Shown piece after piece: positions 13,389-34,153 of a stretch of DNA of 64,000 bases; within the stretch, counting starts at the first letter, position 1; each line of letters opens with the position of its first letter. Source of the DNA: an uncultured Gemmatimonadales bacterium. Lineage in GTDB: Bacteria > Gemmatimonadota > Glassbacteria > GWA2-58-10. The notes under the pieces are model-generated. The model ran no database searches, was not told where the DNA came from, and saw nothing but the letters and a program-made list of their open reading frames with translations. The position numbers and the translations under genes are program-made. Location: positions 14,286 through 78,285 of the forward strand of contig CAZJQI010000008.1 in NCBI GenBank assembly GCA_964548275.1. Reading direction: 5' to 3'.

Positions 13389-15419
13389 ATGCGCACTAAT
13401 ATCATCCTGCTTCTAGTCTTTATTTCCGTCTCCCTATTCCCGCCAGATCCTGCTTATTCCCAGGCCTCGAGCGGCGTTGATGCCGCCTGGCGCGGGGATA
13501 TGAATGAAAACGGCGAAATCGATATTTTCGACTTGCTGGGCCTTATGCGTCATCTGGTTTCCGGAAACTTTGTATCAGACAAAAAACAGCAAATCGCAAA
13601 CGTTGACAGATCAGCTGACGGCAAGATTACTGTATTCGACCTTATCGCGCTGTTGAAAATCCTCTCCGGCAGGGAGGAACCCCGACCTGTTATATTCTCC
13701 TGCGGCGTTAATCATGTTTGGGCTGTAGGAGACGGGGAAAAGGTATTCCGCGATGATCTCGTACACCCGTGCATGAACTCGAACAGTATCTGGGACGGAG
13801 ACACGATCCGTTTTAAGGGGTTGTATAACGAGGTTCTCGCCTTTCAGGTGATCGTGATTGCAGGTAATTACGGCGCCTTGTCAGTGGAAGTGTCTGCCGA
13901 TTTTCTGGTACACACTGAATCGGGCGAGGTGATTGCCTCTGCGCAAAATCCTCCATACAGCCACGGCGGCTGGTTCGAGATATTCAGCCAGCACTACATT
14001 CATGTCGAGAATCCGACCAATCCCAACTGGTTTTACGGCTCATCTGCCTCGGCCCCTGCGCGCATGACCGGCTGGATACCGGATGCTCTGATCACCCCGG
14101 ATGCCGAACCCGACAAGGGTGGTTTCCCGATTCATATTCCTTCCTCAAAGGTCCAGGGCTTCTGGGTCGACCTCTTCCTTCCCCGCGACACGATAGCTTT
14201 TTCCCCCGGCGTGTACACAGGGAAACTCCGGGTTCTGGAAGAGGGGTGGGAAGTGGCTGCACTGCCGGTCAAGCTCGAGCTTTTGCCCCTTTATCTGCCG
14301 GATGAAAACCACTCCAATGTCTGGCTGTTCAACAGTGGTGTAAAGCTGTATTTCCCTGAATTGGACTCAACCCAGATCGATACGATGCTCAAGCACATGG
14401 CACACCGGCACAGGATCGATCTGGTAGGGGGCTTCCAGCCGCACCGCTCACAGTTCGATCAGGGGATGATGGATGCTTACAAGCCCTACCTTGATGGTAA
14501 CGCGTTTACCTCGCAAGCTGGCTACAAGGGACCCGGCCAGGGAGAGCCGGAGCACCTTTTCCCGATCGGGATGTACGGCAGCGCTGTATTAGGCGATACG
14601 AAAGAACAGGTGCAGGAGCAGTCAGACCTCTGGGTCGACTGGTTCGAGGCGAACGCTCCGCAGGTGCGCTATTTCTGGTACCTGATCGATGAGCCGGGAA
14701 CTGATAAATTCAACTGGGTCGCCGAGCGCGCAGGCTGGATCCACGACAACCCCGGCTCTGGAAAGCGCCTGCCGGTGTTCACCACCAGAGCGTGGACAGC
14801 GGAACTCGACAATGCAATCGACCTCTGGGCCGGCGGCCGCGGCATGGACCTTCAAAAACTGGCCGAACTGAAAGAACAGGGTGAGGATCACTGGTTCTAC
14901 AACGGGTCGCGGCCCCGTTACGGGTCCGTGATCCTGGAAGCAGAGGCGGTGGATTTCCGCATGAACGCCTGGGCCAAGTATATCTACCAGGTCAATACAT
15001 GGTTTCTATGGCACGGGAACCACTGGCGGCACAACAGTCAGGGCCCCAGAGCGCATGAACATCAGAACGTATTCACTGACCCGGTAACCTTTATCAGCGG
15101 GCCGAACACTTTCGGCAACGGGGACGGGATAGTGCTCTATCCGGGCAACGAACCGTTTTATTCTGATGAAAGCCGCGGATTGAACAAGATTTTCGGCTCG
15201 ATCCGGCTGAAAAACATCCGCCGGGGCCAGCAGGATTACGAGATCATGTGGCTGGCAGAGCAGAAAGCAGGCCGCGAGCAGGTGCTGGAGATCGTGAAGA
15301 AAGTGGTGCCCAGGGCGTTCAGCGAGGTGGACATGGATGAGGCCGTTCCCTGGTCCCAGCGAGGAGACGATTACGACGCAGCCAGGCTGGAGCTGCTGGA
15401 GTTGATATCAGAGCAGTAA
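13389..15419 (+). CDS. Secreted protein with N-terminal dockerin-like double EF-hand module; large C-terminal domain of unknown (possibly carbohydrate-active) function
   Basis: Signal peptide MRTNIILLLVFISVSLF. DMNENGEIDIFDLLGLMRHL and ANVDRSADGKITVFDLIALLKIL form a duplicated dockerin-type calcium-binding loop plus helix. The remaining ~580 aa have no motif I can assign. Confidence 0.6.
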   Translation: MRTNIILLLVFISVSLFPPDPAYSQASSGVDAAWRGDMNENGEIDIFDLLGLMRHLVSGNFVSDKKQQIANVDRSADGKITVFDLIALLKILSGREEPRPVIFSCGVNHVWAVGDGEKVFRDDLVHPCMNSNSIWDGDTIRFKGLYNEVLAFQVIVIAGNYGALSVEVSADFLVHTESGEVIASAQNPPYSHGGWFEIFSQHYIHVENPTNPNWFYGSSASAPARMTGWIPDALITPDAEPDKGGFPIHIPSSKVQGFWVDLFLPRDTIAFSPGVYTGKLRVLEEGWEVAALPVKLELLPLYLPDENHSNVWLFNSGVKLYFPELDSTQIDTMLKHMAHRHRIDLVGGFQPHRSQFDQGMMDAYKPYLDGNAFTSQAGYKGPGQGEPEHLFPIGMYGSAVLGDTKEQVQEQSDLWVDWFEANAPQVRYFWYLIDEPGTDKFNWVAERAGWIHDNPGSGKRLPVFTTRAWTAELDNAIDLWAGGRGMDLQKLAELKEQGEDHWFYNGSRPRYGSVILEAEAVDFRMNAWAKYIYQVNTWFLWHGNHWRHNSQGPRAHEHQNVFTDPVTFISGPNTFGNGDGIVLYPGNEPFYSDESRGLNKIFGSIRLKNIRRGQQDYEIMWLAEQKAGREQVLEIVKKVVPRAFSEVDMDEAVPWSQRGDDYDAARLELLELISEQ

Positions 15420-19562: not shown

Positions 19563-21872
19563 ATGACCAAAAGCAGTCTGGCAGTGGCTTTAATGTTGAT
19601 TTTTGCGCACTTGAACGATCTCTGCGGCATTGACCTTCATCTCTATGAGGAAAGTTATCTGGACAGAGTATCGGAGCCGGTTACCTGCGGCGTTCCTTTG
19701 GCCCGGGGATACTGCAATTCGGCGGACGAGCTGGTTTTGAAAATCGGTGGTCAGCCTGTGCCGGTTGAAATCCGCGAGGTCAGCCGCTGGCCGGACGGTT
19801 CTTTGCGATGGGTTCATCTTGATTTCCAGGTAAGTGTGCCCGAAGGACGCCTGATTACTGCCTCGCTGGACAAGGGAAAGAGAGCCCCGGTGGATTCAAA
19901 GCTTAAAGTTGAAAAAACACCGCGTGCGATAACTGTCTCCACCGGCAGGCTCAAAGTCGAGGTCTCCCGGAGAAATTTCAATGTCTTCAATCGCATTCAG
20001 GTTCCCAGCGAGGACGGCCGGTATTTCAGGACACTGGTCAATCCTCACAGGCGCGGACTGGTCGCCTGGGCCGGCAAACAGGAATTCCTTGCTGCTAATG
20101 ACACCCTCTCGGTCGTGGAAATCGAAAGCAGCGGGCCAATACGCCTTGTGCTGCGCGCCGAGGGAAACTTTCAGGACACCAACGGCTTGAAACTGTTCCA
20201 CTATATCTGCCGGCTTTATTTCTACAGCGATTCCCCTGTTGTCCGTCTTGCTTTCACTTTTGAAAACCGTGACCCGGTGATCGAAAACAAGGTAGCTCTT
20301 CAGGGCCTCCACGTGGAAATCCCGACCACGATCAGGGGCGCAGGCGGAGCCTATGATATCGGAAAGCCGGGGGGAGATGTTCAGGGAATTTTCCCAAGCA
20401 GGGTTTCAATGGCCTGGGCCCTTGTCAATTCATCCTCCCTGTCCAGTTTTGGAACGGAATCCTTCTTTGAAATCGCCGGCAGCCCGAAAGAGGAAAAATC
20501 CTCTGAACTGGGCTGGATCAGTCTGGGCTCATCCAAAGGCATGGTGGGGGTGGGACTGCGCTACTTCTGGCAGATGTGGCCCTCGATCCTGGAGGTGAAT
20601 GCCAGCGGCCTGATAAGGGCGGGTCTCTTTCCGCAAAGGTTAAACCGCTCGATCGATATCTATTCTGGGGTGGCCCGCACGCATTACCTGCGCTTTGCTT
20701 TTCTTGGCGTGGGCGATCCGGAACGTATAGGCTCCCTGGTGAACTCCTGCCAGCAGCCTCTTCTTGCACTGGCTTCAACCAGCTACTACTGCCAGGAAAC
20801 ACGTGCCTTCGGAAACATCTTCGACCGCGATCTCAGAAATTACCCGAAAGAAAACAGAAAGATTGTAGAACACGTTGATGGCGAGCTGGATTATGGCTAC
20901 AGTCACATGATGAATATGATTGATGAGCGCACCGTGAACGGGGTTACCCGCGACAGTTACGGGTTCCTGAACTGGGGAGACGGATTGCATTATGCATGGG
21001 TGCCCGGAGAGGATAGTGAGTTGAACCTTTCCTGGAACCACCACTATTACGACCTTCCCCATATGAGCTGTATCGAGTTCGCCAGAACCGGCTGTCTCTG
21101 CTGGCTGGATTGTTTCCTTCCGCAAGCCCATCACCTGATGGACGTGCATATGGTTCATTTCGATCCTGAAAATGAGCTTAACGGCCACAATCGCTACTGC
21201 CCGAGTACCGACCATGTTCGCCTGGACCCCAAGGATGCCTCGGATTACCAGACTGCAAAAGTCTACGTTCACCCAAACCAGAACCATTCGAAAACACAGG
21301 GCATGTTCGACCGGTACCTGCTTACAGGTGATGAAAGAAGCTTTGAGGTTGCTCTTAAGGCGCTCGAATTTGCGGCTTCATTCGGCGCTTACGGTGATTT
21401 CAAACAGCCCAGGGGCGCCGCCCACCAGGTGATGACACTGGTTTATGGCTACCGAATAACCGGAGATAAGCGTTACCTCGATATTGCCCGGAGTTCATTC
21501 GAAAAATGGTGGGAGCACTTTCAAACAACCGAAACGAAATTCACCAGGCGCTTTTTCCAGGTCGGGCTGCTGCTCGAGGCCTTTATTGATTTGTACGAGG
21601 AAACCGGGGACAGGAGAATTATCGAATTTACCAGGCAGGCAGTCGATTGGATGCTGGAGAACAGACCGAATGACAGGTTCCCCAACATGAGCCTGGCTCT
21701 GGGTTTCCTGTCTGCCAGGCCCAAGGAGCCGCGCTACACCGAAATGTTGAAAGAGTATCTTATGCTCTGGAAAGGTGTTCAGGGAAATCCGTTCAAGGAT
21801 TTCGCCATGCACGGCAGGAATGTCGCCAGGGCGCTTTATTATCTGTCAAACGAGGCCAGAGGCTCGAAATGA
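19563..21872 (+). CDS. Secreted protein, unassigned family, paralog 1 of a tandem triplet (N-terminal beta-rich region, C-terminal alpha-helical region)
   Basis: 769 aa with signal peptide. Blocks shared with paralogs 2 and 3: EPVTCGVP, VSRWPDGSLRWVHLDFQ, LFHYICRLYF, ENRDPVIENKVALQGLHVEIPT, WGDG(L/M)HYAW, WNHHYYDLPHM, HHLMDVHMVHF, NRYCP.TDHV, HSKTQG(M/L)FDRY..TGDER, FKQPRGAA.QV. Confidence 0.7.
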   Translation: MTKSSLAVALMLIFAHLNDLCGIDLHLYEESYLDRVSEPVTCGVPLARGYCNSADELVLKIGGQPVPVEIREVSRWPDGSLRWVHLDFQVSVPEGRLITASLDKGKRAPVDSKLKVEKTPRAITVSTGRLKVEVSRRNFNVFNRIQVPSEDGRYFRTLVNPHRRGLVAWAGKQEFLAANDTLSVVEIESSGPIRLVLRAEGNFQDTNGLKLFHYICRLYFYSDSPVVRLAFTFENRDPVIENKVALQGLHVEIPTTIRGAGGAYDIGKPGGDVQGIFPSRVSMAWALVNSSSLSSFGTESFFEIAGSPKEEKSSELGWISLGSSKGMVGVGLRYFWQMWPSILEVNASGLIRAGLFPQRLNRSIDIYSGVARTHYLRFAFLGVGDPERIGSLVNSCQQPLLALASTSYYCQETRAFGNIFDRDLRNYPKENRKIVEHVDGELDYGYSHMMNMIDERTVNGVTRDSYGFLNWGDGLHYAWVPGEDSELNLSWNHHYYDLPHMSCIEFARTGCLCWLDCFLPQAHHLMDVHMVHFDPENELNGHNRYCPSTDHVRLDPKDASDYQTAKVYVHPNQNHSKTQGMFDRYLLTGDERSFEVALKALEFAASFGAYGDFKQPRGAAHQVMTLVYGYRITGDKRYLDIARSSFEKWWEHFQTTETKFTRRFFQVGLLLEAFIDLYEETGDRRIIEFTRQAVDWMLENRPNDRFPNMSLALGFLSARPKEPRYTEMLKEYLMLWKGVQGNPFKDFAMHGRNVARALYYLSNEARGSK

Positions 21873-22107: not shown

Positions 22108-24417
22108 ATGTTAAAAAACTTGCTTGCCGTTTTAATAGCCCTGTTCATTACTGTTTCATCCGTTGGAGCGGTAAAACTCTCAGTTGAGGAAAGAAGCGGG
22201 ATTGTGCGGGTAAGCGAGCCTGTCACCTGCGGTGTGCCTTTTGCCGAAAGTGCTGTTTATTCGGAAGACAGCCTCGTTTTGCTGAGAGGCACCTTGCCTG
22301 TGCCGGTTGAAATCCGCCAGGTCAGCCGCTGGCCGGACGGCTCTTTGCGCTGGGTTCACCTGGATTTTCAGGCCAGTGCTGGGCCATGGGAAAACGTCCG
22401 CTTTTCTCTGGAAAAAGGTCCCGCTCAGCCTTTAGCTTCCAGTCTCGAGGTAAAGCGTACTGCCCGAGGCTTCACAGTCGAAACCGGAAAGATAAAGGTC
22501 GAGGTGAAAAGGCGGGGTTTCAATGTATTTAACCGCGTCCTGCTTGCCGGGGAAAACGGAGATTTTGTGAAGGAACTTGTTGCTCCGCACAGTCGCGGAC
22601 TGGCCGCCTGGGCCGGTGGAGAGGAGTATCTTTCCGCCAATGACCAGGCCTCGACACTCCGGGTTGAAAGCTCAGGCCTCATGCGCGTGGTGCTGCGGGC
22701 GCAAGGAGAGTTGAAAAACAGATCGGGGAACAAGCTTTTTCATTATATCTGCCGGTTATATTTCTACAACGGCTCTCCAGTTGTCCGCCTTGTCGTGACT
22801 GTGGAAAACAGGAATCCGGTAATCGAAAACAAGGTCGCTCTTCAGGGACTTCACGTGGAAATTCCCACAACAATGGTTGAAAGCGGCACGGTTTTTCATA
22901 TCGGCGGCCGGGATAGACATCTGGAGGGCCGGTTTGCCGGTTACGGTTCCAATGCTTTTATTCTGGCGCCCTCCTCGGAGCGCTACACTTACGGTGGGGT
23001 GGTGGAAAGTTGGCCCGGCGGCAATGCCAAGACCGAAAGCTCGGACCGGCTGGGCTGGATTGGTATTGCAAGCTCTCGCGGCGCGGTGGCGGTTGGCTTG
23101 CGCGACTTCTGGCAGATGCATCCTTCAAGCCTGGAAGCAGCCTCGGATCAGGGCCTGCTGCTGGTCGGCCTTTTCCCCCTGCGGCTCGGCAGGTCGATTG
23201 ATATCTATTCCGGAGTGTCTCGTACCCACTACCTGCGCTTTGCCTTCACCAGCCAAAACGATCCCGAGTTGCTGTGCTCGCTGACCAGAGCCTGCCAGAA
23301 ACCTCTTACTGCTGTGGCCTCACCGGCCTATTACTGCCGGAAAAGCCGAGCTTTCGGCAAACTGGTAGAGCGAGAATTGTCTCTGTTCCCGGAAGAACAC
23401 CACGCGCTGGTTACCACGGTGCAGAGAGAAACGGACGGGGGTCTGGCCAATCTGCTCTCGCTGGTGGAATCCCGCACTAAAAACGGCGTGACAGTGGAGG
23501 GTTACGGCTATCTGGACTGGGGAGACGGAATGCATCATATCTGGGTGCCTGGAGTGAAAGACCCGCATAACATCTCCTGGAATGGTCATTACTATGATCT
23601 TCCTCATACCTGCTGCCTGGAATACGTGAGCACAGGCAACTGGCGGTACTACGACTTTTTCCTCAGCCGGGCCCAGCATTTGATGGATGTCCATATCGCG
23701 CATTTCGAGCCAGGTAACAAGCTTAACGGTGCCAACCGCTACTGCCCGCCCACCGACCATGTGAGAATCGATCCCAGAAGGCGGGGAGATTTCACCTCCG
23801 CCAGGGTTTACGTATCAAACTCGACCAATCACCACAAGACCCAGGGGCTTTTCGACCGTTTTTATCTTACCGGCGATGAACGGGCGCTCGAGGTGGCCCT
23901 GAAGGCTGTGGAATTCGCCAATTCTTTCGGGGCCTACCGGGATTTCAAACAGCCGCGCGGGGCTGGTTTCCAGGTCCTATCCCTGCTCGAGGCCTACCGT
24001 TACAGCGGCGAAGCCAGATACCTGGAAACCGCGAAAATGACATTCGAGGCCTGGTGGGAGCATTTCAGCACCACGGAGACCAAGTTCACCCGGGGCTATT
24101 TCATGGTCGGGTACCTGCTGGAGGCTTTCGTGGACTACTACGAGATTACCGGGGACAGCCGGGCTGTGGAATTCATCCGCCAGGCCGTGGACTGGATGAG
24201 CGCCAGCCGCCCGAACGACTTATTCTCCAACATGACACTGAGTATCGCCTTTCTGGCGCACCAGACCGGGGAGACCGAATATATCGAACTGGCGAAAAAA
24301 CACCTTTCCCGCTGGCACGGTGTCTGGGAAAACGCTTTCAAGGATTTCGGCCTTCACGGCAGGGGCATTGCCAGGGCGCTCTACTATTTTTCCGATCAAG
24401 CCAGAGGAAGCGATTGA
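22108..24417 (+). CDS. Secreted protein, unassigned family, paralog 2 of tandem triplet
   Basis: 769 aa with signal peptide. Colinear with paralog 1 along its entire length (by eye roughly 55-65% identical) and carries the same conserved blocks. Confidence 0.7.
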   Translation: MLKNLLAVLIALFITVSSVGAVKLSVEERSGIVRVSEPVTCGVPFAESAVYSEDSLVLLRGTLPVPVEIRQVSRWPDGSLRWVHLDFQASAGPWENVRFSLEKGPAQPLASSLEVKRTARGFTVETGKIKVEVKRRGFNVFNRVLLAGENGDFVKELVAPHSRGLAAWAGGEEYLSANDQASTLRVESSGLMRVVLRAQGELKNRSGNKLFHYICRLYFYNGSPVVRLVVTVENRNPVIENKVALQGLHVEIPTTMVESGTVFHIGGRDRHLEGRFAGYGSNAFILAPSSERYTYGGVVESWPGGNAKTESSDRLGWIGIASSRGAVAVGLRDFWQMHPSSLEAASDQGLLLVGLFPLRLGRSIDIYSGVSRTHYLRFAFTSQNDPELLCSLTRACQKPLTAVASPAYYCRKSRAFGKLVERELSLFPEEHHALVTTVQRETDGGLANLLSLVESRTKNGVTVEGYGYLDWGDGMHHIWVPGVKDPHNISWNGHYYDLPHTCCLEYVSTGNWRYYDFFLSRAQHLMDVHIAHFEPGNKLNGANRYCPPTDHVRIDPRRRGDFTSARVYVSNSTNHHKTQGLFDRFYLTGDERALEVALKAVEFANSFGAYRDFKQPRGAGFQVLSLLEAYRYSGEARYLETAKMTFEAWWEHFSTTETKFTRGYFMVGYLLEAFVDYYEITGDSRAVEFIRQAVDWMSASRPNDLFSNMTLSIAFLAHQTGETEYIELAKKHLSRWHGVWENAFKDFGLHGRGIARALYYFSDQARGSD

Positions 24418-24537: not shown

Positions 24538-27486
24538 ATGAGAAACAGGCTGCTGCAGGCAGGTGTTTTGTTATTTTCACTGGCATCGGTTTTACATGCC
24601 ATAGAACTGACAGTGGCTGAACGCAGCGGAATCGGCCGGATAAACGAGTCGGTCACCTGCGGCGTTCCCCTGCCCGTGAGCTGGGTAAATTCAACTGATG
24701 AACTGGTGCTAAGGGTTTTCGGAGAAATCGTGCCTTGCGAATTCAGGGAAGTCGCTCACTGGCCAGACGGCTCTATTCGTTGGGTGCATCTGGATTTCCA
24801 GGCATCCGTGGAGGCCAATGCAAGGCTCTCCCTCTGGCTGGACAAGGGAACTCCGGCACAGTTTGATTCCAGGCTCGAGGTGGTTGAAGAACAGGGCAAG
24901 GTAACAGTATCTACCGGGAGAATCAGGGCCGAGGTTCTCGCGGCTGGATTTAACGTGTTCAACAGTGTCTGGATCGATACCGGATCGGATGGAGATTACG
25001 ACAAACAGCTGGTAAGCACGCACGACAGGGGTCTGGTCATGTGGGCAGAAGGCCAGGAGTACCTGAGTTCAGCTGACCAGAATACAGAATTAACTGTGGA
25101 AAGCCAGGGAACCATGCGGGTGGTGCTCAAAGCAGAGGGTGATCTCAAGAGCACCACCGGCGCAACCGGATTCCATTTTATCTGCCGCCTGTACTTTTTC
25201 AATAACTCCCCCCTTGTTCGCCTGGCTTACACCTTCGAAAACCGCAGCCCTTATCTGGAGGGCCGTGAGGACATGGTGACTCTGGAAGGCTTGCACGTGG
25301 AGCTGCCCACAGCAGATTCGCATTCCGAGTTCTTCCTCGGACTGCCTGATCAGGATCTGAAAGCGACATCTTCTGAGGCAGGAGGCAATCAAATCTATCT
25401 CGGCACCAGCGCTACGAACCAGTTGATCTACTACCATGGAGAAAGCCAGGACAACGTTGGTAATCCCAAGGCGCTGAAAACAGACCGCATCGGCTGGATC
25501 GGGATGGATGTTGTTGAAAGCGGGCAAGTAAAATCACTGGTTGGCATGGGCCTGCAGGATTTCTGGCAGATGCATCCAAGCACGCTGGAGGTGGATGCCG
25601 AAACCGGATTGATTACCGCCGGGCTTATCCCGTATAGACTTGACACTCCCATCGATATTTACTCCGGGGTGGCCCGCACCCATTATCTGCGTTTCGTCTT
25701 TTTGCACGAGGAGGAAGCCTCCAACCTGGGAAAGATGCTCGCCGCCTGCCAGAAACCCTTGCTTGCAATAGCCGAGCCTGAATATTACTGCAGGGACAGC
25801 AATACGTTCGGTAAGATAATGGAACGAAATCCCGCACTCTATCCGCCCGAGCACCTGGAGGAGGTTCAGCGCGTTGAGAGAGAGCTCGATCTGGGCCTGG
25901 AGGACCAGCTGCGCAAGCTCGACAACCGCACGAAAAACGATGTAACCTGGGAGAGTTACGGCTTTCTCAACTGGGGTGACGGCATGCACTACGCCTGGGA
26001 ACCCGGGGTTCACGTTGCGCGAAATATCGCCTGGAACCACCACTATTATGACCTTCCGCACATGAGCAGTGTCGAGTTCGTGCGCACAGGGGATTACCGC
26101 TGGCTGGATTATTTTCTCTCCCGTGCCCACCACCTGATGGATGTGCACATGGTTCATTTCGGTCCAGGCAAATACCTGAACGGCGCCAACCGCTACTGCC
26201 CTCCAACCGACCACGTGCGCAGAGATCCCACAGATGATAGCGATTACACTACTGCTCCGGTTTACGTATCACCTTACACCAATCACCACAAGACTCAAGG
26301 GTTGTTCGAGCGCTGGTATTTCACCGGGGATGAACGCAGCCTGGACTGCGCTCTCCGGGGAGCTGAATTCGCCAGATCGTTCGGCGGGTATCCTGATTAC
26401 AAGCAGCCGCGCGGCGCGGCTTTCCAGGTCCTGACCCTGCTTGCCGCCTACCAGTGCACCGGCGACGATAAATACCTCCTGACTGCAAAAACCACTTTCG
26501 ACACCTGGTACAGCTATTTCCGCAGCACGAGCATCAAGTTCACCCAGGGATATTTCATGGTGGGATTTCTGCTCGAGGCTTTTATCGACTACTATGAAAT
26601 CAGCGGCGACAGCAATGTCGTAGATTTTGTCAAGCAAGCAGTGGACTGGATGCGCGCCAACAGGCCAGAAGAAAAATATTCGAACATGGCGCACGGTATC
26701 GGTTTCCTGGCCGCACAACTCGAAGACCCTTCCTATACGACATTACAAAAAGAATACCTCACAAGCTGGTACGGCACCTGGTCAAACGCCTACAAGGATT
26801 TCGGCCTGAACGGCAGGAGTCTCGCCCGCGCACTGTATTACCTTTCTTATGAAGGACAGGGTTACGAACTGCGGATGACCGGAGACTACGATGATGACGA
26901 AGCCCTGACAATCAGCGACCTGGTCGCACTGCTGGTCAAAGGGATGCAGGATGAGTCAAACCCGGAGATAGATTTCAACCGGGACGGCAAGTACTCTATC
27001 ATGGATGCACTCGCCCTGCTGATATATATCCGCGGGCACAGCGCAGGTGTTTCACTGGCCGCAGCAGGCAGGGATCTGAACTCGAAATTCCGGCTCACCC
27101 CGGTAGAGCTGGCTGAGCTGTTGGAACAACTGGTCAAGCTGGATCTTACTGAAAGTGAATGGGAAGCGTTAAATTCGCTACTAGACCGTGAGCAACTGCC
27201 CAGGGCGTTCACCCTGTCGCAGAACCGGCCGAACCCGTTCAACCCCACCACGACTATCAGTTTCGGCATCCCCCAGGGGCGTGCTCTGGAAGTGAAGCTG
27301 GTTGTGTATAACCTTAGAGCGATGCTGGTAAAGGTGCTTGTGGAAGAGGTAAAAGAGCCGGGATATTACAGTGTGCTCTGGGACGGCACTGATAACCAGG
27401 GAAAAGCGATTGGGTCCGGGGTGTATTTTTACCGCCTCAGTGCAGGCGACTTTTCTGCTGTGCGCAAAATGGTTCTGATGAAATAA
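24538..27486 (+). CDS. Secreted protein, paralog 3 of tandem triplet, with added C-terminal dockerin-like module and T9SS C-terminal sorting domain
   Basis: First ~780 aa are colinear with paralogs 1 and 2. A dockerin-like stretch follows (DYDDDEALTISDLVALLVKGM...DFNRDGKYSIMDALALLIYIRG). The last ~85 aa (PNPFNPTTTISFGIPQGRALEVKLVVYNLRAMLVKVL...GVYFYRLSAGDFSAVRKMVLMK) match the T9SS / Por secretion tail pattern. Confidence 0.75.
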   Translation: MRNRLLQAGVLLFSLASVLHAIELTVAERSGIGRINESVTCGVPLPVSWVNSTDELVLRVFGEIVPCEFREVAHWPDGSIRWVHLDFQASVEANARLSLWLDKGTPAQFDSRLEVVEEQGKVTVSTGRIRAEVLAAGFNVFNSVWIDTGSDGDYDKQLVSTHDRGLVMWAEGQEYLSSADQNTELTVESQGTMRVVLKAEGDLKSTTGATGFHFICRLYFFNNSPLVRLAYTFENRSPYLEGREDMVTLEGLHVELPTADSHSEFFLGLPDQDLKATSSEAGGNQIYLGTSATNQLIYYHGESQDNVGNPKALKTDRIGWIGMDVVESGQVKSLVGMGLQDFWQMHPSTLEVDAETGLITAGLIPYRLDTPIDIYSGVARTHYLRFVFLHEEEASNLGKMLAACQKPLLAIAEPEYYCRDSNTFGKIMERNPALYPPEHLEEVQRVERELDLGLEDQLRKLDNRTKNDVTWESYGFLNWGDGMHYAWEPGVHVARNIAWNHHYYDLPHMSSVEFVRTGDYRWLDYFLSRAHHLMDVHMVHFGPGKYLNGANRYCPPTDHVRRDPTDDSDYTTAPVYVSPYTNHHKTQGLFERWYFTGDERSLDCALRGAEFARSFGGYPDYKQPRGAAFQVLTLLAAYQCTGDDKYLLTAKTTFDTWYSYFRSTSIKFTQGYFMVGFLLEAFIDYYEISGDSNVVDFVKQAVDWMRANRPEEKYSNMAHGIGFLAAQLEDPSYTTLQKEYLTSWYGTWSNAYKDFGLNGRSLARALYYLSYEGQGYELRMTGDYDDDEALTISDLVALLVKGMQDESNPEIDFNRDGKYSIMDALALLIYIRGHSAGVSLAAAGRDLNSKFRLTPVELAELLEQLVKLDLTESEWEALNSLLDREQLPRAFTLSQNRPNPFNPTTTISFGIPQGRALEVKLVVYNLRAMLVKVLVEEVKEPGYYSVLWDGTDNQGKAIGSGVYFYRLSAGDFSAVRKMVLMK

Positions 27487-27523: not shown

Positions 27524-29668
27524 ATGAAAAAGTTTCCGGGTTTTCAAAAATTACTTTTTCTCCTCGCTTTCTTTTCCATTTTCTACGTCAGATTCTCCTT
27601 CGCCGTAGAGGTATCCGAAGGACACCCACGCCTGTTTTTCCGGGACAGCGCCTGGGGAGAACGCTCGATCACCACGGAACAACTCAGGCAGCGGGCCAAT
27701 GACCCGCGCTACGCGGCCTATGTGAACAGGCTCACTTACAGCTCCTGCAACGTGGCTCTTAAAGCGATTCTGTTTGACGATACTCAGGCTGCCCGGGAAT
27801 GCATCTCCATGATGGAAAGCAACTTCGATTTCGACGGCACTACAACCGACGGCGAGCTGTTGATGTGGCGGGCCATGGCTTTCGACTGGCTTTACAACCA
27901 TCCGGATTTCACCGAGACTCACAAACAGAATGTGATCCGGAAACTCGCTCAGGGGGCGAGCTGGTGCAGGAGTGAGTATATCGGACAGGGTCCGCACGTT
28001 TTTCATACACGTATGTATGCGTTCGCTCTCGGTACAGCAATAGCGGGCCTTGCGCTCAAGGGCCACCACCAGGATGCGGATTTTTACATCGACTGGGCTG
28101 ACTCGATATTCACTCACCACCTTTTCCCTGCCCGCCACCTCCAGGGCGGCTCTGTGCACAACAGCCTGGCCTACGGCCGCAGGTACGTCATGTGGCATTG
28201 CGGCCATTTCATGAGTGCCTGGTATTCAGCCACCGGTCAGGACAAATGGAAAACGGTCCGCGAGCAGCAGGATGACTGGGCCTGGCGCGAGGCGGAATTT
28301 ATCATGTATGGGAGGCAGCCGGACGGGCTGCTGGTGCGTTACGGCGACTGTTTCAGACGCACCTCCGAGCGGTTCTCTTTCCGGGTGATCGGCGAGCGGG
28401 CCTTTGCCTGCAGCAAGCCGATAGGGATGAATTACCTCCACTACCTGTTCCAGACCCAGGCGAATATGACGGACAACCGCGTGGTGGAGGAAGGCAACGC
28501 CTATCATGTTCTTCTCTATTGGGACGCAGACGATCCAGGCCGCTCGTTTAAAACTCTGCCCACCAGAACCCTGTTCAGTCCCCAGGGCACCGGCATGGTT
28601 TTCTGGCGCAGCGGCTGGGGCGAGGACGATACGTTTATCTTTTTCAAGTGCGGCAACTATTTCGGCAACCACGGCCATTTTGACCAGGGCCACCTCGAGG
28701 TTTTCCATCGCGCACCGCTGTTGATCGAGGGCGGAGCCTACGAGGGCGATTTCGACAGCAATTACAGGCTTAACTATTACCGCAAAACGGTCGCCCATAA
28801 CTTGATCCTGGCGGTAAACCCCGCCCTGGCTCAGGATGAGGGAGGACAAAGGATTTTCAGCAACCAGGGCGAACCATCAGTGGAAAGCTACCTGGGTAAC
28901 CCGATTAACGAAACCGGAGATATTATTGATTACCGGGACCAGGGGAACTGGTGTTACGTTTCAGGGAGTTTCGGCAGCGCTTACGATAACAGTAGGATAA
29001 TTAGGGCCGTGCGCGAGGTGGCCTGGATCGGCGAGCGCTACCTGGTGGTTGTGGACAATATCAAACTGGGCAGCAGTTCTTTTCTGCCAAAGGTGATCTG
29101 GCATTATACGGTCACCCCCGTAATCGAGGGAAACCGATTTACAGTCACCGACCGCGGCGGCAGGGCGGTAGTCACCGTGCTGGCGCCCCCGGAGGCGACA
29201 ATCGACACAATTCAGGCTTACCGGATCGGCACCGCATATTACCCTCCGCCTGATCCGCGTCCCTCGATAGGGGTGGGGCGAACCGAAATCAGCGTGCCCC
29301 AGCCGGGAGTGGCCGATTACACCTTTGTCCAGGTAATCGACGTGGCCGATGAAGGGATCGCCCCCGGTAGCCTGGCTTTCGAATCAGATGAAACCGAGGG
29401 AACTCTGATTGTGACTTTGCCGGTAGGCACTTTCCGCCTGAGCGGCAGCCCGCTCGAACGCACGGCAGTCGCGTTCGAGGCTGCCGCGCTGGAACCGAGA
29501 GGCGATTTCAGCGGCAATGGCACCGTGGGTATCGAAGATCTGGTGAGCCTGCTTCTGCGCGCCCTTGAAAACACCAACGATCCTATGCTGGATTTCAACC
29601 AGGACGGACACTATTCGATCCTGGACGCCATTGCGCTGCTGCTATATATCCACTCGCAGGGGAGCTAG
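27524..29668 (+). CDS. Heparinase II/III-like polysaccharide lyase with C-terminal dockerin-like module
   Basis: Signal peptide. N-terminal alpha-helical (alpha/alpha toroid-like) region. GNYFGNHGHFDQGHLEVFHRAPLLIEGG matches the heparinase II/III C-terminal GH.H.D signature. C-terminus RGDFSGNGTVGIEDLVSLLLRAL...DFNQDGHYSILDAIALLLYI is a dockerin-type duplicated loop-helix. Confidence 0.75.
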   Translation: MKKFPGFQKLLFLLAFFSIFYVRFSFAVEVSEGHPRLFFRDSAWGERSITTEQLRQRANDPRYAAYVNRLTYSSCNVALKAILFDDTQAARECISMMESNFDFDGTTTDGELLMWRAMAFDWLYNHPDFTETHKQNVIRKLAQGASWCRSEYIGQGPHVFHTRMYAFALGTAIAGLALKGHHQDADFYIDWADSIFTHHLFPARHLQGGSVHNSLAYGRRYVMWHCGHFMSAWYSATGQDKWKTVREQQDDWAWREAEFIMYGRQPDGLLVRYGDCFRRTSERFSFRVIGERAFACSKPIGMNYLHYLFQTQANMTDNRVVEEGNAYHVLLYWDADDPGRSFKTLPTRTLFSPQGTGMVFWRSGWGEDDTFIFFKCGNYFGNHGHFDQGHLEVFHRAPLLIEGGAYEGDFDSNYRLNYYRKTVAHNLILAVNPALAQDEGGQRIFSNQGEPSVESYLGNPINETGDIIDYRDQGNWCYVSGSFGSAYDNSRIIRAVREVAWIGERYLVVVDNIKLGSSSFLPKVIWHYTVTPVIEGNRFTVTDRGGRAVVTVLAPPEATIDTIQAYRIGTAYYPPPDPRPSIGVGRTEISVPQPGVADYTFVQVIDVADEGIAPGSLAFESDETEGTLIVTLPVGTFRLSGSPLERTAVAFEAAALEPRGDFSGNGTVGIEDLVSLLLRALENTNDPMLDFNQDGHYSILDAIALLLYIHSQGS

Positions 29669-30186
29669 CCGTCCGGATATTTTTTCAGCCGCGAAAACTC
29701 CTCCTCGAAATTCGGGGTGAATGTGCCGCTTCCCAGCACGCGCTCGATTTCCGCGAAACTCCAGAACCGGCCCTCGTCGATCTCCGAGCGCAGTATCCGC
29801 ATCGGCCCCTTGTAGTAGCAGAGATATGAGGTCACCAGCTCTGTCTCCACCTCTGAACGCCAGATATAGCTGTAAAGAAACTGGATATCCACGCCTGCAA
29901 TACCGAGTTCTTCGCTCATCTCGCGTTTTGCCGCCTCAAGGACACTTTCCCCCGGAGCCACATGCCCGCCCACCGAGGTATCCCACTTGCCGGGCTGGAT
30001 ATCTTTGTCCGCGCTTCTTTTCTGAAGGAATATCCTCTGCTCTCCGGTTTTCTTCTCGATATCGAGCACCAGCACGTGCACGCTGCGATGGATGAGCTCC
30101 GGGTTGCCGTGCACCTCGCTGCGCGGCGCGTGACCGATAATTCGCCCGCTCCGGTCAACTATGTCAAATATCTCGTCAACGCTCAA
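29665..30186 (-). CDS. NUDIX hydrolase
   Basis: Nudix box GGHVAPGESVLEAAKREMSEELGI. TTG start overlaps the stop of the upstream small gene. Confidence 0.8.
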   Translation of the reverse strand: MSVDEIFDIVDRSGRIIGHAPRSEVHGNPELIHRSVHVLVLDIEKKTGEQRIFLQKRSADKDIQPGKWDTSVGGHVAPGESVLEAAKREMSEELGIAGVDIQFLYSYIWRSEVETELVTSYLCYYKGPMRILRSEIDEGRFWSFAEIERVLGSGTFTPNFEEEFSRLKKYPDG

Positions 30187-30539
30187 TTGTCAGGCTCCAG
30201 AGCACGAATCTCACCGGTTTGCTGAATGACCACCGGGAAGCCCTCCAGTGTGGAAGGAATCTTTTTCGTCAATTCGGGTGTCTTTTCGATCACCAGAACT
30301 TTAATACACAACTCGCCCTTATCTTCTCCGAGAGCTGTTCCTACCACCCCGGGAATGGACATCAGCTCCGGAGTGTGGGCTTTGAGCACTTCCTGGATGG
30401 TTTTTGAAGGCATTGTATTTTCTCTTTGTTGAATTTTATCTCTTGTACAGGCCATAAAGCTAAGGGCCGCGGCTATCATGCCTGTGCACAAAACAGCGAT
30501 TTTGATTCGAGAAACCATGGAAAACTTCTCTTCAAGCAC
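30183..30539 (-). CDS. Small secreted protein homologous to the N-terminal (pro-domain-like) region of the adjacent S1 protease
   Basis: 118 aa with signal peptide. IPGVVGTALGEDKGELCIKVLVIEKTPELTKKIPSTLEGFPVVIQQTGEIRAL aligns with residues ~60-110 of the protease (ADVVGTATGLGPAGTPAVLVLTKVPGVAGIPRSLDGVPVVVKVTGEIVAL). Confidence 0.5.
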   Translation of the reverse strand: MLEEKFSMVSRIKIAVLCTGMIAAALSFMACTRDKIQQRENTMPSKTIQEVLKAHTPELMSIPGVVGTALGEDKGELCIKVLVIEKTPELTKKIPSTLEGFPVVIQQTGEIRALEPDN

Positions 30540-30680
30540 GGCTTTTCCCAGCCTTTTCTATGAAAGTGTTAACATCGAGGGAAATATAAAAGCAATAGGG
30601 AAAGAGAAGCATAATAGCTGATCAGCATTTCCCTTTCCCTATTTTTTTTCAGGGGGATTTATAAAATAAAACTGTAAAAT

Positions 30681-31745
30681 TTACTCACCGTCAATTGACA
30701 CATTGAAGCTATTAAGCACATCACCAATATGATTAGCCACAGCAAAAGTGCCCCGCCTATTGCCAGCAAACAACAAACCAACGGGGTTGCGGCCAGGATC
30801 TGTAACCAGAAGCGATCCCGAATCCCCGGCCTTGATAACCGGTTTTCTGGCCTCTACTATGATTTGATTTACAAAACGAGCCGTACCCGAGCTGTAACCG
30901 ACATTAACAGTAGCATTGATAGCGGTAACCTGCCCTTTGGTCAGCCCAGTAGTCCTGCCGTATTTCTGTACTGCCATGTAGAGTTTAGCCTCGGCGGTAG
31001 TCGAGTTGGGTGTTCCATACCCGTCGCTCGGTGTGGCATTGTCGAGTAAATCCGTTTGAGCAATCGCCGCATCGATGGTGTTAGATGCCGAAGTGCTAAA
31101 GATGATCGGCTCGAAATCGTCTAAAGTGCCGATGACATTGTTGTCGTCAAGAATGCAGCCGGTATCGTAGAGCCCTGGCTGCAAAACCTTGCTACCCTTA
31201 GGAGCAGTGTTTTCAAGAGCATATACGTGGTTGTTGCTCAGGGCGTAAACCTTATTACCATTTTTTACCCTGGCCCCAATGGTGCCGGACGAACACTCTC
31301 CCTCGTTGCCTGTGGAAACACCTATCGGCACAGGACGTTCGAATCTATCTTTTGGATCAATCTTATCGCCATTGCCCGGTTTGTCTGGTTTGCCCGGTTT
31401 TGCTGGCTTGGGTAACGCTACAATTTCCCCGGTTACTTTCACCACAACCGGCACGCCGTCCAGGCTCCTGGGGATTCCAGCTACGCCAGGCACCTTTGTC
31501 AGAACCAGAACCGCAGGTGTGCCAGCCGGGCCGAGACCCGTAGCAGTGCCTACCACATCGGCCATGGCCATAAGCCGGGGAGTGTGCAGGTTCTGGACAG
31601 CCATCGCCCTTGCGAGACCGACACCGGCTCCCGCCAGGCTGGGACCTTCCGGCCCTGCCTCGAACGGCTGTTGTCTATCCTGGCAGCCTGAAAAAGCCAG
31701 AGCCAGGAACATGCATGGTGCAATAAGCCGAATAAAAAATTTCAT
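30681..31745 (-). CDS. Secreted chymotrypsin-fold (S1 family) serine peptidase with N-terminal pro-domain-like region and Pro/Lys-rich linker
   Basis: Lipoprotein-type signal (LALAFSGC). Catalytic motifs NNHV (His), GDSGSLLV (Ser), and a TAGHC-like region. Linker PKPAKPGKPDKPGNGDK. Confidence 0.75.
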   Translation of the reverse strand: MKFFIRLIAPCMFLALAFSGCQDRQQPFEAGPEGPSLAGAGVGLARAMAVQNLHTPRLMAMADVVGTATGLGPAGTPAVLVLTKVPGVAGIPRSLDGVPVVVKVTGEIVALPKPAKPGKPDKPGNGDKIDPKDRFERPVPIGVSTGNEGECSSGTIGARVKNGNKVYALSNNHVYALENTAPKGSKVLQPGLYDTGCILDDNNVIGTLDDFEPIIFSTSASNTIDAAIAQTDLLDNATPSDGYGTPNSTTAEAKLYMAVQKYGRTTGLTKGQVTAINATVNVGYSSGTARFVNQIIVEARKPVIKAGDSGSLLVTDPGRNPVGLLFAGNRRGTFAVANHIGDVLNSFNVSIDGE

Positions 31746-32094
31746 CCTTTCCCTTCTTTAAGGATGTGAAAAGAAGACAAAAAAATAATATTAAGATTAT
31801 TATGTTTATATATAATTTTTCCTGAAAAAGTCAATATTCTAAATTCCAAAAAAATAAACAATAGTTGTTGATTGGTTGATTGTATGTGGCATGAAAATAT
31901 GGAGTTAGTCCACCCTATAAAAGACTATCATAGCTGCCCAGTATTTAGAAAAAAAGCAAAAAACATGCCTCGAAGAACTGGATGTGTTTAAGATTACTCG
32001 GAGATGCGATTATCCCGTTTCCTCCGGCAGCCGTAAGGCTGGGTGGATAGACAGGCGTACTGTAGATCATATTTTACTTGCAAATAAACGGATT

Positions 32095-32130
32095 GGGGCG
32101 TCAATCAATCCCTGACGCCTCCTTTTTTTC
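32095..32130 (+). terminator. Rho-independent terminator inside a 1.1 kb gene-free region
   Basis: 9-bp stem GGGGCGUCA / UGACGCCUC with 9-nt loop, followed by CUUUUUUU. No +strand CDS lies upstream of it. Confidence 0.6.
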
Positions 32131-32520
32131 AATAGGTGCCTTAGCAATTGTCTGCCCTTTCAGTTTAAAGCCGGGAAAAATCCCCCTCTCCGGGATAAAA
32201 TCTTTCCTGATCCTGCCGGAATCTTAAAGTGCTTTTCCGCGGCAAATTTTGCTTACGGGGCTTCTTCTTATTTGAAATGCTTAAGGAGAACCCCTATTTT
32301 TCTAATTGGAGGCGAAAACTCCATTGCAAGGAGCGTTTATATTTATATTTGAATTTCGTAAACCTGTAACCATGGATAAAGTCAATTTTCTATTTTGATT
32401 CTGGCTAAAGTGAAGGTATTTTTCATTTAGCGAGTTATTTTCCTGAGCTTCTCATATTTAACTTTGCGTGGGGAAATGATCCGTTCCCGGGATTGAGAAA
32501 ACCCAGGAGATGGCTTTAAA

Positions 32521-32735
32521 GTTTAATCGAGAAGAATTCCCCGAAGCTTTGCTCCATAGTAAACAACCCGGGGATCGGCAGGTAATCCCCATTAACAAAA
32601 GGGAATCAATATGTAATCCCCCTAAAAAAGGGGAAGACAGGGGGTTGTCTTGATGTGTTCGCCCTCGGAGGAAATAAGATCGACCAAATTCATCATTATG
32701 ATACTCCGCGGCTTGCCGCTGGGCAGCTCATTTAT
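32521..32735. repeat. Dispersed intergenic element, copy B (upstream of mtaB)
   Basis: Left motif tttaatcgagaagaattccccgaagctttgctccatagtaaa. Internal units taatccccattaacaaaaggga / taatccccctaaaaaagggga / agacagggggttgtc. Right motif gatactccgcggcttgccgctgggcagctcatttatt. Confidence 0.6.
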
Positions 32736-32836
32736 TTTCGCTTTATAATTGGTTTAATTTAAATTAATTAGGACTCTTAACCTGAAGTGATTTATCAGGT
32801 ACAATTGGCCTTTCTGTTTCCGGGATACGATAGGGA

Positions 32837-34153
32837 ATGAAAGTATTTTTCAACACTTTCGGCTGCAAGACCAACCAGTACGATTCGGCTCTCATCGGGC
32901 AAATTTTCGAACAGGCAGGGTTTACTCTCACCGATAATCCGGATTCTGCACAGTGGGTTGTAGTGAATACCTGCTCGGTAACCAAGCGTGGAGAAGATAA
33001 GGCCTGCCAGTGGGTGCGCAAGATAGGCCGCGAGCATCCAGAGGCAAGAATAGCGGTTGTCGGCTGCTCGGTTGAGGTAAGCGCCGGGCGTTTCGCCGAA
33101 CTTCCCGGGGTGAGCCTGCTTCTGGGCACAGAGGAAAAATTCCGGCTGGGTGAGGTTCTGGCAGAATATGAAAAGAACAGGGGCAAATCACAGGAGAGGC
33201 TTGAGCCTGCAAGCGGCCTGGTCCGCAAGCTCGACCGATACAGCCAGAAAGCCGTGCTCACCGCGCACAGGGATCACGCCCGGGCTTTTGTAAAAATACA
33301 GGACGGCTGCAACAACCGCTGTACCTACTGTATCGTGCCGTTTACGCGGGGTGTGAGCAGGAGCAGGCCGCTCGAGCAGGTTCTCGCCGAGATACAGGCT
33401 CTTGAAACCCGGGGCCACAGGGAGGTGGTGCTGACCGGGATCCATATCGGCCGGTATGGCCTGGATCTGCCGGAAGCTTTAACATTGGCTGCCCTGGTGG
33501 AGAAAGTTCTCACTGAAACCGGTGAGGTTCGAATCCGCCTGAGTTCTGTGGAGGTTGGAGAGATTGACGAGCCTCTGGTGGAATTGCTCTCCAGCCGGGA
33601 AAGGCTTTGCAGCCATCTCCACATTCCCATTCAGCACGGCAGCAAAACAGTGCTCGCGCGGATGGGACGTAAGTACAGCCCTGCGGAATTCCGCGGAACA
33701 GTGGAAAGAATCGCCGAATCTCTGCCTGGTCTCGGCCTTGGTACGGATGTCATTGCCGGCTTCCCGGGTGAAACCGAATCTGAATTCAACGAATGCCGGG
33801 ATTTCATAGATTCCCTGCCCTTTACTTACCTTCACGTTTTCCCGTTCTCGCCGAGACCTGGAACCGAGGCTGCCAAGCTCGGCAATCACCTGATTAAAGG
33901 GGAGATTCGCAGGCGGGTTAAAATTATGCGTGAACTCTCGAACAGGAAAAGGGAGAGTTTCTTGCGCAGCCTGGCCGGGAAAACTCTTTCAGTGGTTCAC
34001 GAAAGCGAGCTGCCCTCTGGTGTTTCGGTCTGCCGCGCGGACAATTACGCCAGGGTTTATTATCAGGGCGCCAGTCCTCCAAAAATTTTTGATCTTATTG
34101 CAGAGCAGCCCTGGCGCGACGGTGTCTGGGCAAAATTGCCGGCTGGTGCTTAA
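32837..34153 (+). CDS. mtaB: MiaB-like radical-SAM tRNA methylthiotransferase (MtaB family)
   Basis: N-terminal MTTase domain KVFFNTFGCKTNQYDS with conserved Cys residues. Radical SAM CNNRCTYC. Confidence 0.75.
   Translation: MKVFFNTFGCKTNQYDSALIGQIFEQAGFTLTDNPDSAQWVVVNTCSVTKRGEDKACQWVRKIGREHPEARIAVVGCSVEVSAGRFAELPGVSLLLGTEEKFRLGEVLAEYEKNRGKSQERLEPASGLVRKLDRYSQKAVLTAHRDHARAFVKIQDGCNNRCTYCIVPFTRGVSRSRPLEQVLAEIQALETRGHREVVLTGIHIGRYGLDLPEALTLAALVEKVLTETGEVRIRLSSVEVGEIDEPLVELLSSRERLCSHLHIPIQHGSKTVLARMGRKYSPAEFRGTVERIAESLPGLGLGTDVIAGFPGETESEFNECRDFIDSLPFTYLHVFPFSPRPGTEAAKLGNHLIKGEIRRRVKIMRELSNRKRESFLRSLAGKTLSVVHESELPSGVSVCRADNYARVYYQGASPPKIFDLIAEQPWRDGVWAKLPAGA

Follow-up and report, generated by a model that had tools for sequence, protein, structure and literature searches.

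Organization of the locus

The window, by which is meant the whole 64,000-nucleotide (nt) stretch of DNA analysed here (positions 14,286 to 78,285 of contig CAZJQI010000008.1, from an uncultured Gemmatimonadales bacterium), encodes an exported serine protease related to NAL1 of rice and, downstream of it, a small protein with an export signal that is a stand-alone paralog of the protease's own N-terminal domain. The open reading frames (ORFs) of the protease, the small protein and a NUDIX hydrolase are arranged head to tail, all on the minus strand, and a scan of the window found one copy each of the protease and small-protein domains.

The gene of the NAL1-like S1 serine protease, predicted to be made as an exported lipoprotein precursor, is an ORF of 354 amino acids (30681..31745, minus strand, as are all features in this paragraph and the next). 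A signal peptide with the lipobox LAFSG-C21 (31683..31745), read from the sequence and modelled by AlphaFold2 (AF2) as a helix of residues 2-19, is followed by the segment that the protease has in common with the small protein (the N-domain, residues ~40-112; 31410..31628), by a low-complexity linker rich in proline, lysine and glycine (residues 113-130; 31356..31409; AF2 predicted local distance difference test score, or pLDDT, of ~58), and by a catalytic domain of the chymotrypsin fold (30684..31355), recognized by its catalytic triad and its structural matches. The triad is encoded by the codons of His173 (31227-31229), Asp225 (31071-31073) and Ser309 (30819-30821).

The 141-nt intergenic gap between the protease and small-protein genes contains a terminator-like hairpin (30595..30643; AGGGAAAGGG...CUCUUUCCCU), the stem of which appears in the centroid structure, followed by a U-rich tract. 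The small gene (30183..30539) encodes 118 amino acids if read from a GTG codon, but its start is probably the ATG at 30518, giving 111 amino acids, because its homologues begin with M[IV][AS]RIKIA. Its signal peptide and lipobox LSFMA-C24 (30447-30518), again read from the sequence, precede the mature alpha-beta-beta-alpha-beta domain (30198-30407) defined on the AF2 model. The NUDIX hydrolase gene (29665..30186) is an ORF of 173 amino acids that matches PF00293.

A protease related to NAL1

The window protease is an exported bacterial serine protease related to rice NAL1. When its AF2 model (pLDDT 88.7; predicted template modelling score, or pTM, 0.84) was submitted to Foldseek, the top 33 matches were all rice NAL1 (E 2.5e-16 to 7.6e-13), aligned over 366-412 columns, whereas the S1E proteases SGPB and alpha-lytic protease, which rank after NAL1 (E ~1e-12 to 1e-10), aligned over 223-235 columns that cover the catalytic domain only. 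NAL1 is also the best match by sequence profile, its chains being matched in the PDB by the profile of the protease family with an E value of 2e-6. The window protease itself scores 21.6 bits against the Pfam family Nal1_C (PF25819), below the cutoff of 26.1 bits, and 63 of its 64 close homologues match that family at E<=1, the best of them at 2.1e-9. The triad is intact, His173, Asp225 and Ser309 being invariant across the 64 homologues. More than 5178 homologues of the protease were found at E<=1e-3. The linker varies in length among their N-termini, and after it the catalytic domain has a conserved start, DPxxRFxRPVPIGVSTGN. Some partner proteases at other loci carry C-terminal extensions of a kind typical of cell-surface or secreted proteins, either CarboxypepD_reg with an MG2-like domain or CARDB (L002, 3251-4897; L007, 3111-4820; here and below, L numbers denote the metagenome or genome loci compared, and P numbers denote representative proteins from a profile search).

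NAL1 is represented by the structures PDB 7Y77, 8PMG, 8PME and 8HAU and by the Pfam families NAL1_N (PF25608) and Nal1_C (PF25819). The bacterial protease shares with NAL1 the succession of a small alpha/beta domain (a helix and four strands), a linker, and a chymotrypsin-fold domain with His, Asp and Ser. It differs in several respects: the bacterial proteins are exported, with a signal peptide or lipobox; they are without residues 1-88 of NAL1, which form the hexamer by exchange of an N-terminal strand (PMC12012508), and without its C-terminal tail; their linker is longer and of low complexity; an insertion that carries the phosphate ligands R120, R122 and K123 in NAL1 is absent; and a separate gene encodes a free copy of the N-domain, which is unreported for NAL1.

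The segment shared by the two proteins

The small protein aligns with the N-terminal region of the protease far beyond chance (BLASTP, 29/60 residues or 48% identical, E 2e-11, residues 55-114 of the small protein against 54-111 of the protease), and the relationship is reciprocal by profile, with the small ORF reaching 2.5e-16 against the protease profile and the protease reaching 5e-13 against the profile of the small domain. An earlier note on this DNA, made from the letters alone, had called the small protein a secreted stand-alone paralog of a protease pro-domain and had proposed pairwise and profile alignment of the two N-terminal regions; both alignments are significant and bear out the paralogy, and the predicted export is upheld by the lipoprotein-type signal peptides, with lipobox, that begin both the small protein and the protease of the window. 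The motifs HT..L, VVGTA.G, IP..L.G.PV and TGEI.AL are kept in the free and the tethered domains.

Several lines of comparison relate this segment to the N-terminal "ATP-binding" domain (ABD) of NAL1, which Pfam NAL1_N covers as NAL1 residues 89-168. The protease N-domain is modelled by AF2 as one long helix and four strands (pLDDT 92-98), its secondary structure agrees with the published description of the ABD, and it is collinear with the ABD, upstream of the catalytic domain. Directed hidden Markov model (HMM) tests, each with 300 shuffles, were made against the NAL1 sequence (checked against PDB 8pmg_A): the N-domain profile aligned to NAL1 113-142 (LGTAVGFRIRKGDLTDIPAILVFVARKVHK) with 9.8 bits and the small-protein profile to NAL1 with 4.5 bits, in both cases with 0/300 shuffles as good. 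NAL1_N was the family most often matched by small proteins, in 4 of 26 cases, all sub-threshold (11.7-16.3 bits, cutoff 27; best E 0.006; profile positions 33-72 of 80). The signal is faint elsewhere: hhalign of the small-domain profile with a single fragment of NAL1 gave a weak result (E 0.011, probability 3.9%), the small protein of the window had no match in Pfam, NAL1_N included, at E<=1, and neither the small protein nor the N-domain has an above-threshold Pfam assignment. The AF2 model of the small protein has the topology alpha-beta-beta-alpha-beta, with pLDDT ~97 over residues 41-105. That topology is generic, and a Foldseek search of the PDB with this model gave nothing significant (best match EscJ, E 0.014; NAL1 8pmg_F, E 0.27); by sequence the small protein had no match in the PDB, where its profile drew only chance matches to ribosomal protein uS19. 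Taken with the collinearity and the directed tests, the shared segment is the predicted bacterial counterpart of the NAL1 ABD (NAL1_N).

The ABD of NAL1 is a permanent domain, retained in the mature, active enzyme (PMC12012508). The NAL1 trimer is held together by the ABD of one subunit resting on the protease domain of the next, with a contact of 1991 Å2; oligomerization is needed for activity, and the ABD is required for a stable, active enzyme and binds ATP (PMC12012508). Of the ATP-phosphate ligands of NAL1, the bacterial N-domain and small protein keep only the lysine equivalent to K139 (TK/EK-T); R120, R122 and K123 belong to a 5-residue insertion of NAL1 (FRIRKGDL) that has no counterpart in them, so that the ATP-binding label should not be transferred to the bacterial domains.

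The designation of the shared segment as a pro-domain fared less well than the paralogy. Against the alpha-lytic pro-region (checked against PDB 2pro_A), the N-domain profile scored 1.4 bits, with 14/300 shuffles as good, and the small-domain profile found nothing; PF02983 was not matched by any of 26 small or 64 protease sequences; and no pro-region was found in the profile search of the PDB (E<=10) or among the 50 Foldseek matches listed for the small-protein model. With no detectable similarity to the alpha-lytic pro-region and an alignment to the NAL1 ABD instead, the label is unproven and probably misleading.

Conservation and origin of the gene pair

Conservation of the pair was assessed without bias toward the small protein in 80 metagenome loci fetched by the protease alone. 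In 63 of them the DNA extends far enough downstream for the test, and 57 of the 63 have the small gene immediately after the protease gene, on the same strand. The earlier note had held that absence of the small gene from relatives would speak against its idea, and had suggested examining synteny in related genomes; there the gene proves to be kept. At loci reached in the opposite direction, from the small protein, an NAL1-like protease with its own N-domain lies directly upstream, again on the same strand, wherever upstream DNA exists. The pair occurs in genomes of at least six phyla, and the groups represented are Latescibacterota, Gemmatimonadota, Ignavibacteriales, Kapaibacterium, Bacteroidota and Eisenbacteria; at a Chloroflexota locus the upstream DNA holds only the 3' end of the protease ORF. 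The two genes overlap by 11 nt in L005, and at many loci the downstream ORF, delimited from stop to stop with start codons unmapped, opens within a few bases of the end of the protease ORF or overlaps it. The other neighbours differ from locus to locus and include an acetyltransferase, an ABC transporter and genes on the opposite strand. Such conservation would fit a dedicated binding partner of the protease, for example an inhibitor or a chaperone.

Departures from the simple pair were seen at a few loci. The order is protease-small-small in L018 (3917-4630, Gemmatimonadales) and protease-protease-small in L021 (1231-4222, Ignavibacteriales). A "split protease" in L002-L004, in which the small gene would precede a catalytic gene devoid of an N-domain, was considered and rejected: the ORF in question, downstream of the small gene, is a decayed second protease copy with the remnant end of an N-domain, a change of frame and a poly-G frameshift, a run of 10 G shifting the frame before GDSGS (L002, 5360-6320; the same in L003 and L004). 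On a Latescibacterota chromosome (OZ252228.1, 8.08 Mb; L001/L017, 4780-5861) the partner protease is split into N-domain and catalytic ORFs beside insertion sequence elements of the rve and IS110 types, and is possibly a pseudogene; the small gene there is intact.

A comparison made with 61 non-identical pairs (122 domains) found the nearest neighbour of every domain (122/122) to be of its own class, small protein or N-domain. Mean identity among small proteins is 52.9%, against 37.9% between a small protein and the N-domain of its own protease. The small proteins thus appear to form one clade of their own, distinct from the N-domains, which is evidence of a single old duplication with subsequent co-inheritance. 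Over 60 pairs, the distances among small domains co-vary with those among N-domains (r 0.62, partial 0.57) and much more weakly with those among catalytic domains (r 0.30, partial 0.12), the latter spanning a narrow range, which lowers correlations; within one polypeptide, the distances of N-domain and catalytic domain correlate at only 0.34.

Small proteins are numerous. A word-indexed search gave 91 homologues, all of 68-195 amino acids and none with a Pfam domain. An exhaustive search with the small-domain profile, run on representatives of 50%-identity clusters, gave 4027 representatives at E<=1e-3 and 1464 at E<=1e-10; almost all of the best 150 have 73-255 amino acids, with the domain at the C-terminal end. 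Because this profile gives tethered N-domains no more than 17-55 bits and 1e-10 corresponds to ~53 bits, most of the 1464 are probably stand-alone, suggesting that clusters of the small protein number on the order of a thousand. A few stand-alone proteins (P0212, P0213, P0215) consist of two or three tandem copies. P0216 (250 amino acids) has the first ~200 residues of a protease fused directly to a small-protein domain, either by deletion or by misassembly. One high-scoring protein, P0220 (3346 amino acids, 122 bits, 16 profile matches), was rejected as a false positive, the profile having matched an 18-residue motif in each of 16 PASTA repeats; it combines these repeats, whose motif resembles SIPGVVGTA, with Kelch/galactose-oxidase-like and laminin-G domains, and calls for caution in profile searches.

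Most small proteins have a lipobox or a Sec signal across the loci, and in many of them the first hairpin carries a Cys-x4-6-Cys pair, a feature typical of proteins located outside the cytoplasm. A strict lipobox pattern is present in 23/64 small proteins, compared with 7/64 of the partner proteases. In 60/64 loci the small protein ends 0-5 residues past the conserved GEIRAL motif. Purifying selection on the mature small domain is strong, with a ratio of nonsynonymous (dN) to synonymous (dS) substitution rates of 0.08-0.10. The small gene of L106 (3652-3987), which has an in-frame stop (TIQ*VLK) and is either a pseudogene or the product of a sequencing error, was left out of the codon statistics.

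The NUDIX gene and transcription of the locus

The NUDIX protein matches PF00293 with 67 bits (cutoff 21.1) and has an intact Nudix box, GHVAPGESVLEAAKREMSEELGI (GX5EX7REUXEEXGU); its best NCBIfam matches, YfcD-like and isopentenyl diphosphate (IPP)-isomerase-like, are both below cutoff. In PADLOC it has a weak match to the candidate family PDC-S07 (E 1.8e-7). For the protease and the small protein PADLOC gave no match, which makes a known defence system at this locus unlikely. No signal peptide was found in the NUDIX protein, which is predicted to be cytoplasmic. Its TTG start overlaps the TGA stop of the small gene as TTGA (4 nt), an overlap conserved in close relatives, and its translation is predicted to be coupled to that of the small gene. 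The NUDIX gene follows the pair only where the entire local gene order is shared, in close relatives, and is absent at L001, L002, L005 and L007, where unrelated genes take its place; it appears to be a local, lineage-specific passenger outside the conserved module.

The stable hairpin and the U-rich tract lie ~40 nt past the stop codon of the protease gene. An equivalent hairpin and U tract, with altered stem sequences, occur in L013, L105, L106 and L025, and no equivalent was found in the distant L007. A simple terminator scan overlooked the hairpin, the loop of which is longer than 8 nt, and Rfam had no match within 29500-33000. In this lineage, at least some of the transcription probably stops behind the protease gene, and the small gene and the NUDIX gene would be expressed by read-through or from a promoter of their own. 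A single uninterrupted transcript of the three genes, which the earlier note had proposed as a co-transcribed unit, is therefore not assured, given the conserved terminator-like hairpin between the protease and small genes: the shared strand and the TTGA overlap stand in its favour, but the hairpin and the restriction of the NUDIX gene to close relatives do not agree with it.

A divergent block around the catalytic domain

L013, L105 and L106 are collinear with the window, with ~90-100% nt identity in the flanks, which include the protease N-domain, the mature domain of the small protein and a 1.09-kb upstream non-coding region (95%). Comparison of the window with these three loci delimits a sharply bounded block (30437..31454, not assigned to a strand) with 58-79% nt identity, which comprises the linker, the catalytic domain, the intergenic hairpin region and the signal peptide of the small protein. 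Within this group the amino acid identity is 63-75% for the catalytic domain, 86-94% for the N-domain and 91-97% for the small domain, and the catalytic domains of the group are as far apart from one another as from those of unrelated lineages. In the catalytic domain dS is 0.63-1.08, compared with 0.18-0.38 in the flanks (three to five times higher), and dN is 0.17-0.30, compared with 0.02-0.085, giving the catalytic domain a dN/dS of ~0.27. The raised dS argues that the block consists of older, imported or long-maintained alleles and is not merely evolving fast; it looks like the result of recombinational cassette exchange or of long-term balanced alleles.

The non-coding region upstream (31746-32836) is a 1.09-kb AT-rich stretch with no convincing ORFs, which separates the protease gene from a divergently oriented radical S-adenosylmethionine (SAM) gene of the MiaB-like type. 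It is 95% identical to L013, in a context where the flanks are mostly 91-99% identical per 150-nt step, and terminator-like hairpins occur within it near 32566-32623, with no Rfam match. It could be a promoter, a regulatory region or an undescribed RNA. Farther away, a gene of the PcRGLX/FlgD-Ig type in L013 aligns to the collinear window at ~25900-26830 and also matches the window at 23472-24400 and 20937-21439 with ~69% nt identity, which indicates a putative tandem family of large secreted polysaccharide-lyase-like paralogs beside a heparinase II/III-like gene.

Comparison with known systems

The general arrangement, in which a protease is accompanied by a neighbouring small partner that stems from its N-terminus, is already known. 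In Streptococcus pyogenes, the gene of the propeptide analogue Spi lies beside speB, and the two are transcribed together (PMC2873492). As in the window, the small protein is homologous to the N-terminal region of the adjacent protease (PMC2873492). SpeB, however, is a C10 cysteine protease of unrelated fold; Spi has been described as protecting the producer cell (PMC2873492), whereas the small protein of the window carries an export signal; and the N-terminal region of SpeB has been described as a propeptide (PMC2873492), whereas cleavage of the N-domain in the window protease is only hypothetical. The staphopain-staphostatin and Bfp-Bfi pairs likewise have a small gene within tens of bases downstream of the gene for a secreted protease (PMC2873492). 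The Bfi inhibitors of Bacteroides fragilis, directly downstream of the Bfp proteases, are predicted to be periplasmic or lipoproteins and have been proposed to protect the envelope (PMC2873492). Staphostatins and Bfi differ from the window small protein in being lipocalin-like and not paralogs of any part of their protease.

The alpha-lytic protease and streptogrisin precursors have a pro-region (PF02983; PDB 2PRO, 4PRO) that, like the N-domain, is an alpha/beta domain preceding an S1E-like catalytic domain, and their catalytic domains are structurally similar to that of the window protease (E ~1e-11 to 1e-12), but their pro-regions have no detectable sequence similarity to its N-domain. No stand-alone pro-region gene is known for these enzymes. 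PBI2 and CTLA-2, like Spi, are protease partners derived from the N-terminal region of a protease. MicroProteins, or dominant-negative regulators, are stand-alone interaction domains that titrate a multi-domain parent, a concept that comes from eukaryotic transcription factors; the small protein resembles them in consisting of its parent's interaction domain only, by analogy and not by homology. No description of a protease paired with a free copy of its N-domain was found in the literature searched. What is new here is the clan of the protease (S1, NAL1-like), the duplication of a domain of the oligomerization type instead of a demonstrated propeptide, and the breadth of conservation.

Possible roles of the free domain

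The comparisons above present the exported single-domain paralog and the NAL1-type protease upstream of it as a conserved two-gene module in many phyla. The role favoured here for the free copy, tentatively, is that of a co-exported, usually lipid-anchored mimic of the N-domain that would dock on the protease and restrain or position it. With the same fold as the tethered N-domain and the same conserved surface motifs, the free copy could serve as a mimic acting in trans; after co-export it would dock at the site or partner of the N-domain on the protease, or on the N-domain itself, the equivalent contact in NAL1 being that of the ABD with the catalytic domain, which builds the oligomer. Docking would restrain the protease, hold it at the envelope of the producer, or both, and the free copy would then be a dominant-negative or "safety-catch" partner, comparable to Spi in the SpeB-Spi pair and to the exported Bfi lipoproteins; the NUDIX protein would stand outside this mechanism. 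Paralogy, conserved synteny, a single old duplication under constraint, signals for the same compartment, the relation of the N-domain to the NAL1 ABD, co-variation with the N-domain and the precedents of adjacent inhibitors were counted in its favour.

Several observations weigh against the mimic. The tethered N-domain is already confidently docked in the monomer model (pTM 0.84), so that the free copy could compete only if the tethered one came loose, were exchanged between subunits or were cut off at the linker. No co-variation links the small protein to the catalytic domain, and it stays constant while catalytic alleles are swapped, which implies either contact through conserved catalytic surfaces or the N-domain as the true partner; the narrow range of the catalytic-domain distances may, moreover, weaken the co-variation result itself. 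Between strands 2 and 3 the small protein has a helix (KTPEL) where the N-domain has a loop (PGVAG), and 6 of the 63 proteases are without a partner.

The free domain may instead be a subunit for assembly or activation, filling a vacant trans site or pairing with a tethered N-domain to complete or stabilize an active hetero-oligomer and, if lipidated, fastening to the membrane a protease that would otherwise be soluble. This is a serious alternative, although a somewhat unlikely one: contacts of the ABD with the serine protease domain (SPD) form the NAL1 trimer and the oligomer is required for activity (PMC12012508), the more frequent lipobox of the small proteins fits a tether, co-variation is with the N-domain and not the catalytic domain, stand-alone proteins with two or three tandem copies exist, and near-obligate pairing (57/63) suits a subunit as well as an inhibitor; yet the bacterial enzymes are without both the N-terminal strand with which NAL1 forms its hexamer and the basic ATP-binding residues, a tether would be redundant in the window, where both proteins are predicted lipoproteins, and the relatives without a partner (6/63) manage without such a subunit. 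It is less likely again that the N-domain is a cleavable segment of the alpha-lytic or subtilisin type, with the free copy acting as a folding catalyst, as a tight inhibitor with its TGEIRAL tail in the active site, or as both. The catalytic domain is, NAL1 aside, closest to S1E proteases (SGPB, alpha-lytic protease) that need N-terminal pro-regions; a long flexible Pro/Lys/Gly linker separates it from the N-domain; the small protein has a free tail, ending within 5 residues of GEIRAL at nearly all loci (60/64); the AF2 model places residues 109-110 of the protease (VA of EIVAL) in a beta-bridge with high confidence; and Spi is a precedent for a propeptide analogue (PMC2873492). Each of the comparisons with pro-regions was nevertheless negative, from the directed test (1.4 bits, 14/300 shuffles) through PF02983 in the 26 small and 64 protease sequences to the listed Foldseek matches, and mature, active NAL1 keeps its homologous domain (PMC12012508).

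The divergent block bears on a further possibility, which is put forward as distinctly unlikely: that the constant tethered N-domain and the free lipoprotein paralog act as a "handle plus safety" pair that brackets a swappable catalytic "warhead" in a polymorphic cassette-type system. As at polymorphic toxin loci, recombination would pass alleles of the warhead from one strain or lineage to another, the reason being that the protease attacks other organisms or targets that vary. That the two genes have no functional coupling, the small gene being a leftover from partial tandem duplication of the 5' end of the protease gene with an independent function (such as the binding of an envelope ligand) or none, is slightly more doubtful still. 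Tandem duplications in L021 and L018, the decayed second protease in L002 and the terminator-like hairpin that parts the genes in this lineage would agree with such an origin, but the small proteins form a single old clade that is more conserved than the N-domain, with a dN/dS of ~0.1, and adjacency in 57/63 loci across phyla while all other neighbours change is typical of functional coupling. Most improbable is a functional operon of three genes, in which, for example, regulation might be linked to nucleotides, an echo of the ATP bound by the NAL1 ABD. The 4-nt TTGA overlap is kept in close relatives, and the NAL1 ABD does bind ATP (PMC12012508); against this, the NUDIX protein is predicted to be cytoplasmic and the other two proteins exported, the bacterial domains are without the insertion bearing R120, R122 and K123, and the absence of the NUDIX gene beside the pair outside the immediate lineage largely refutes such an operon.

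Significance

The protease and its free N-domain form a widespread, unannotated two-gene module of environmental bacteria, and homologues of the protease number in the thousands. An NAL1_N/ABD-like name and a structural context can be given to the N-domain as well as to the orphan small protein, and secreted bacterial proteases become linked to NAL1, the product of a rice yield gene with a poorly understood N-terminal "ATP-binding" domain. The apparent exchange of catalytic cassettes hints at diversifying or balancing selection on the exported protease; if the polymorphic-cassette interpretation were true, the free domain would be a generic, allele-independent factor of self-protection, and the same free-domain logic might regulate plant proteases of the NAL1 type. 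Bacteria appear to use the ABD-type domain as a detachable protein-protein module, and if the free copy does regulate the protease, then the S1 clan, with a domain that is not a classical propeptide, would join the short list represented by Spi, PBI2 and CTLA-2.

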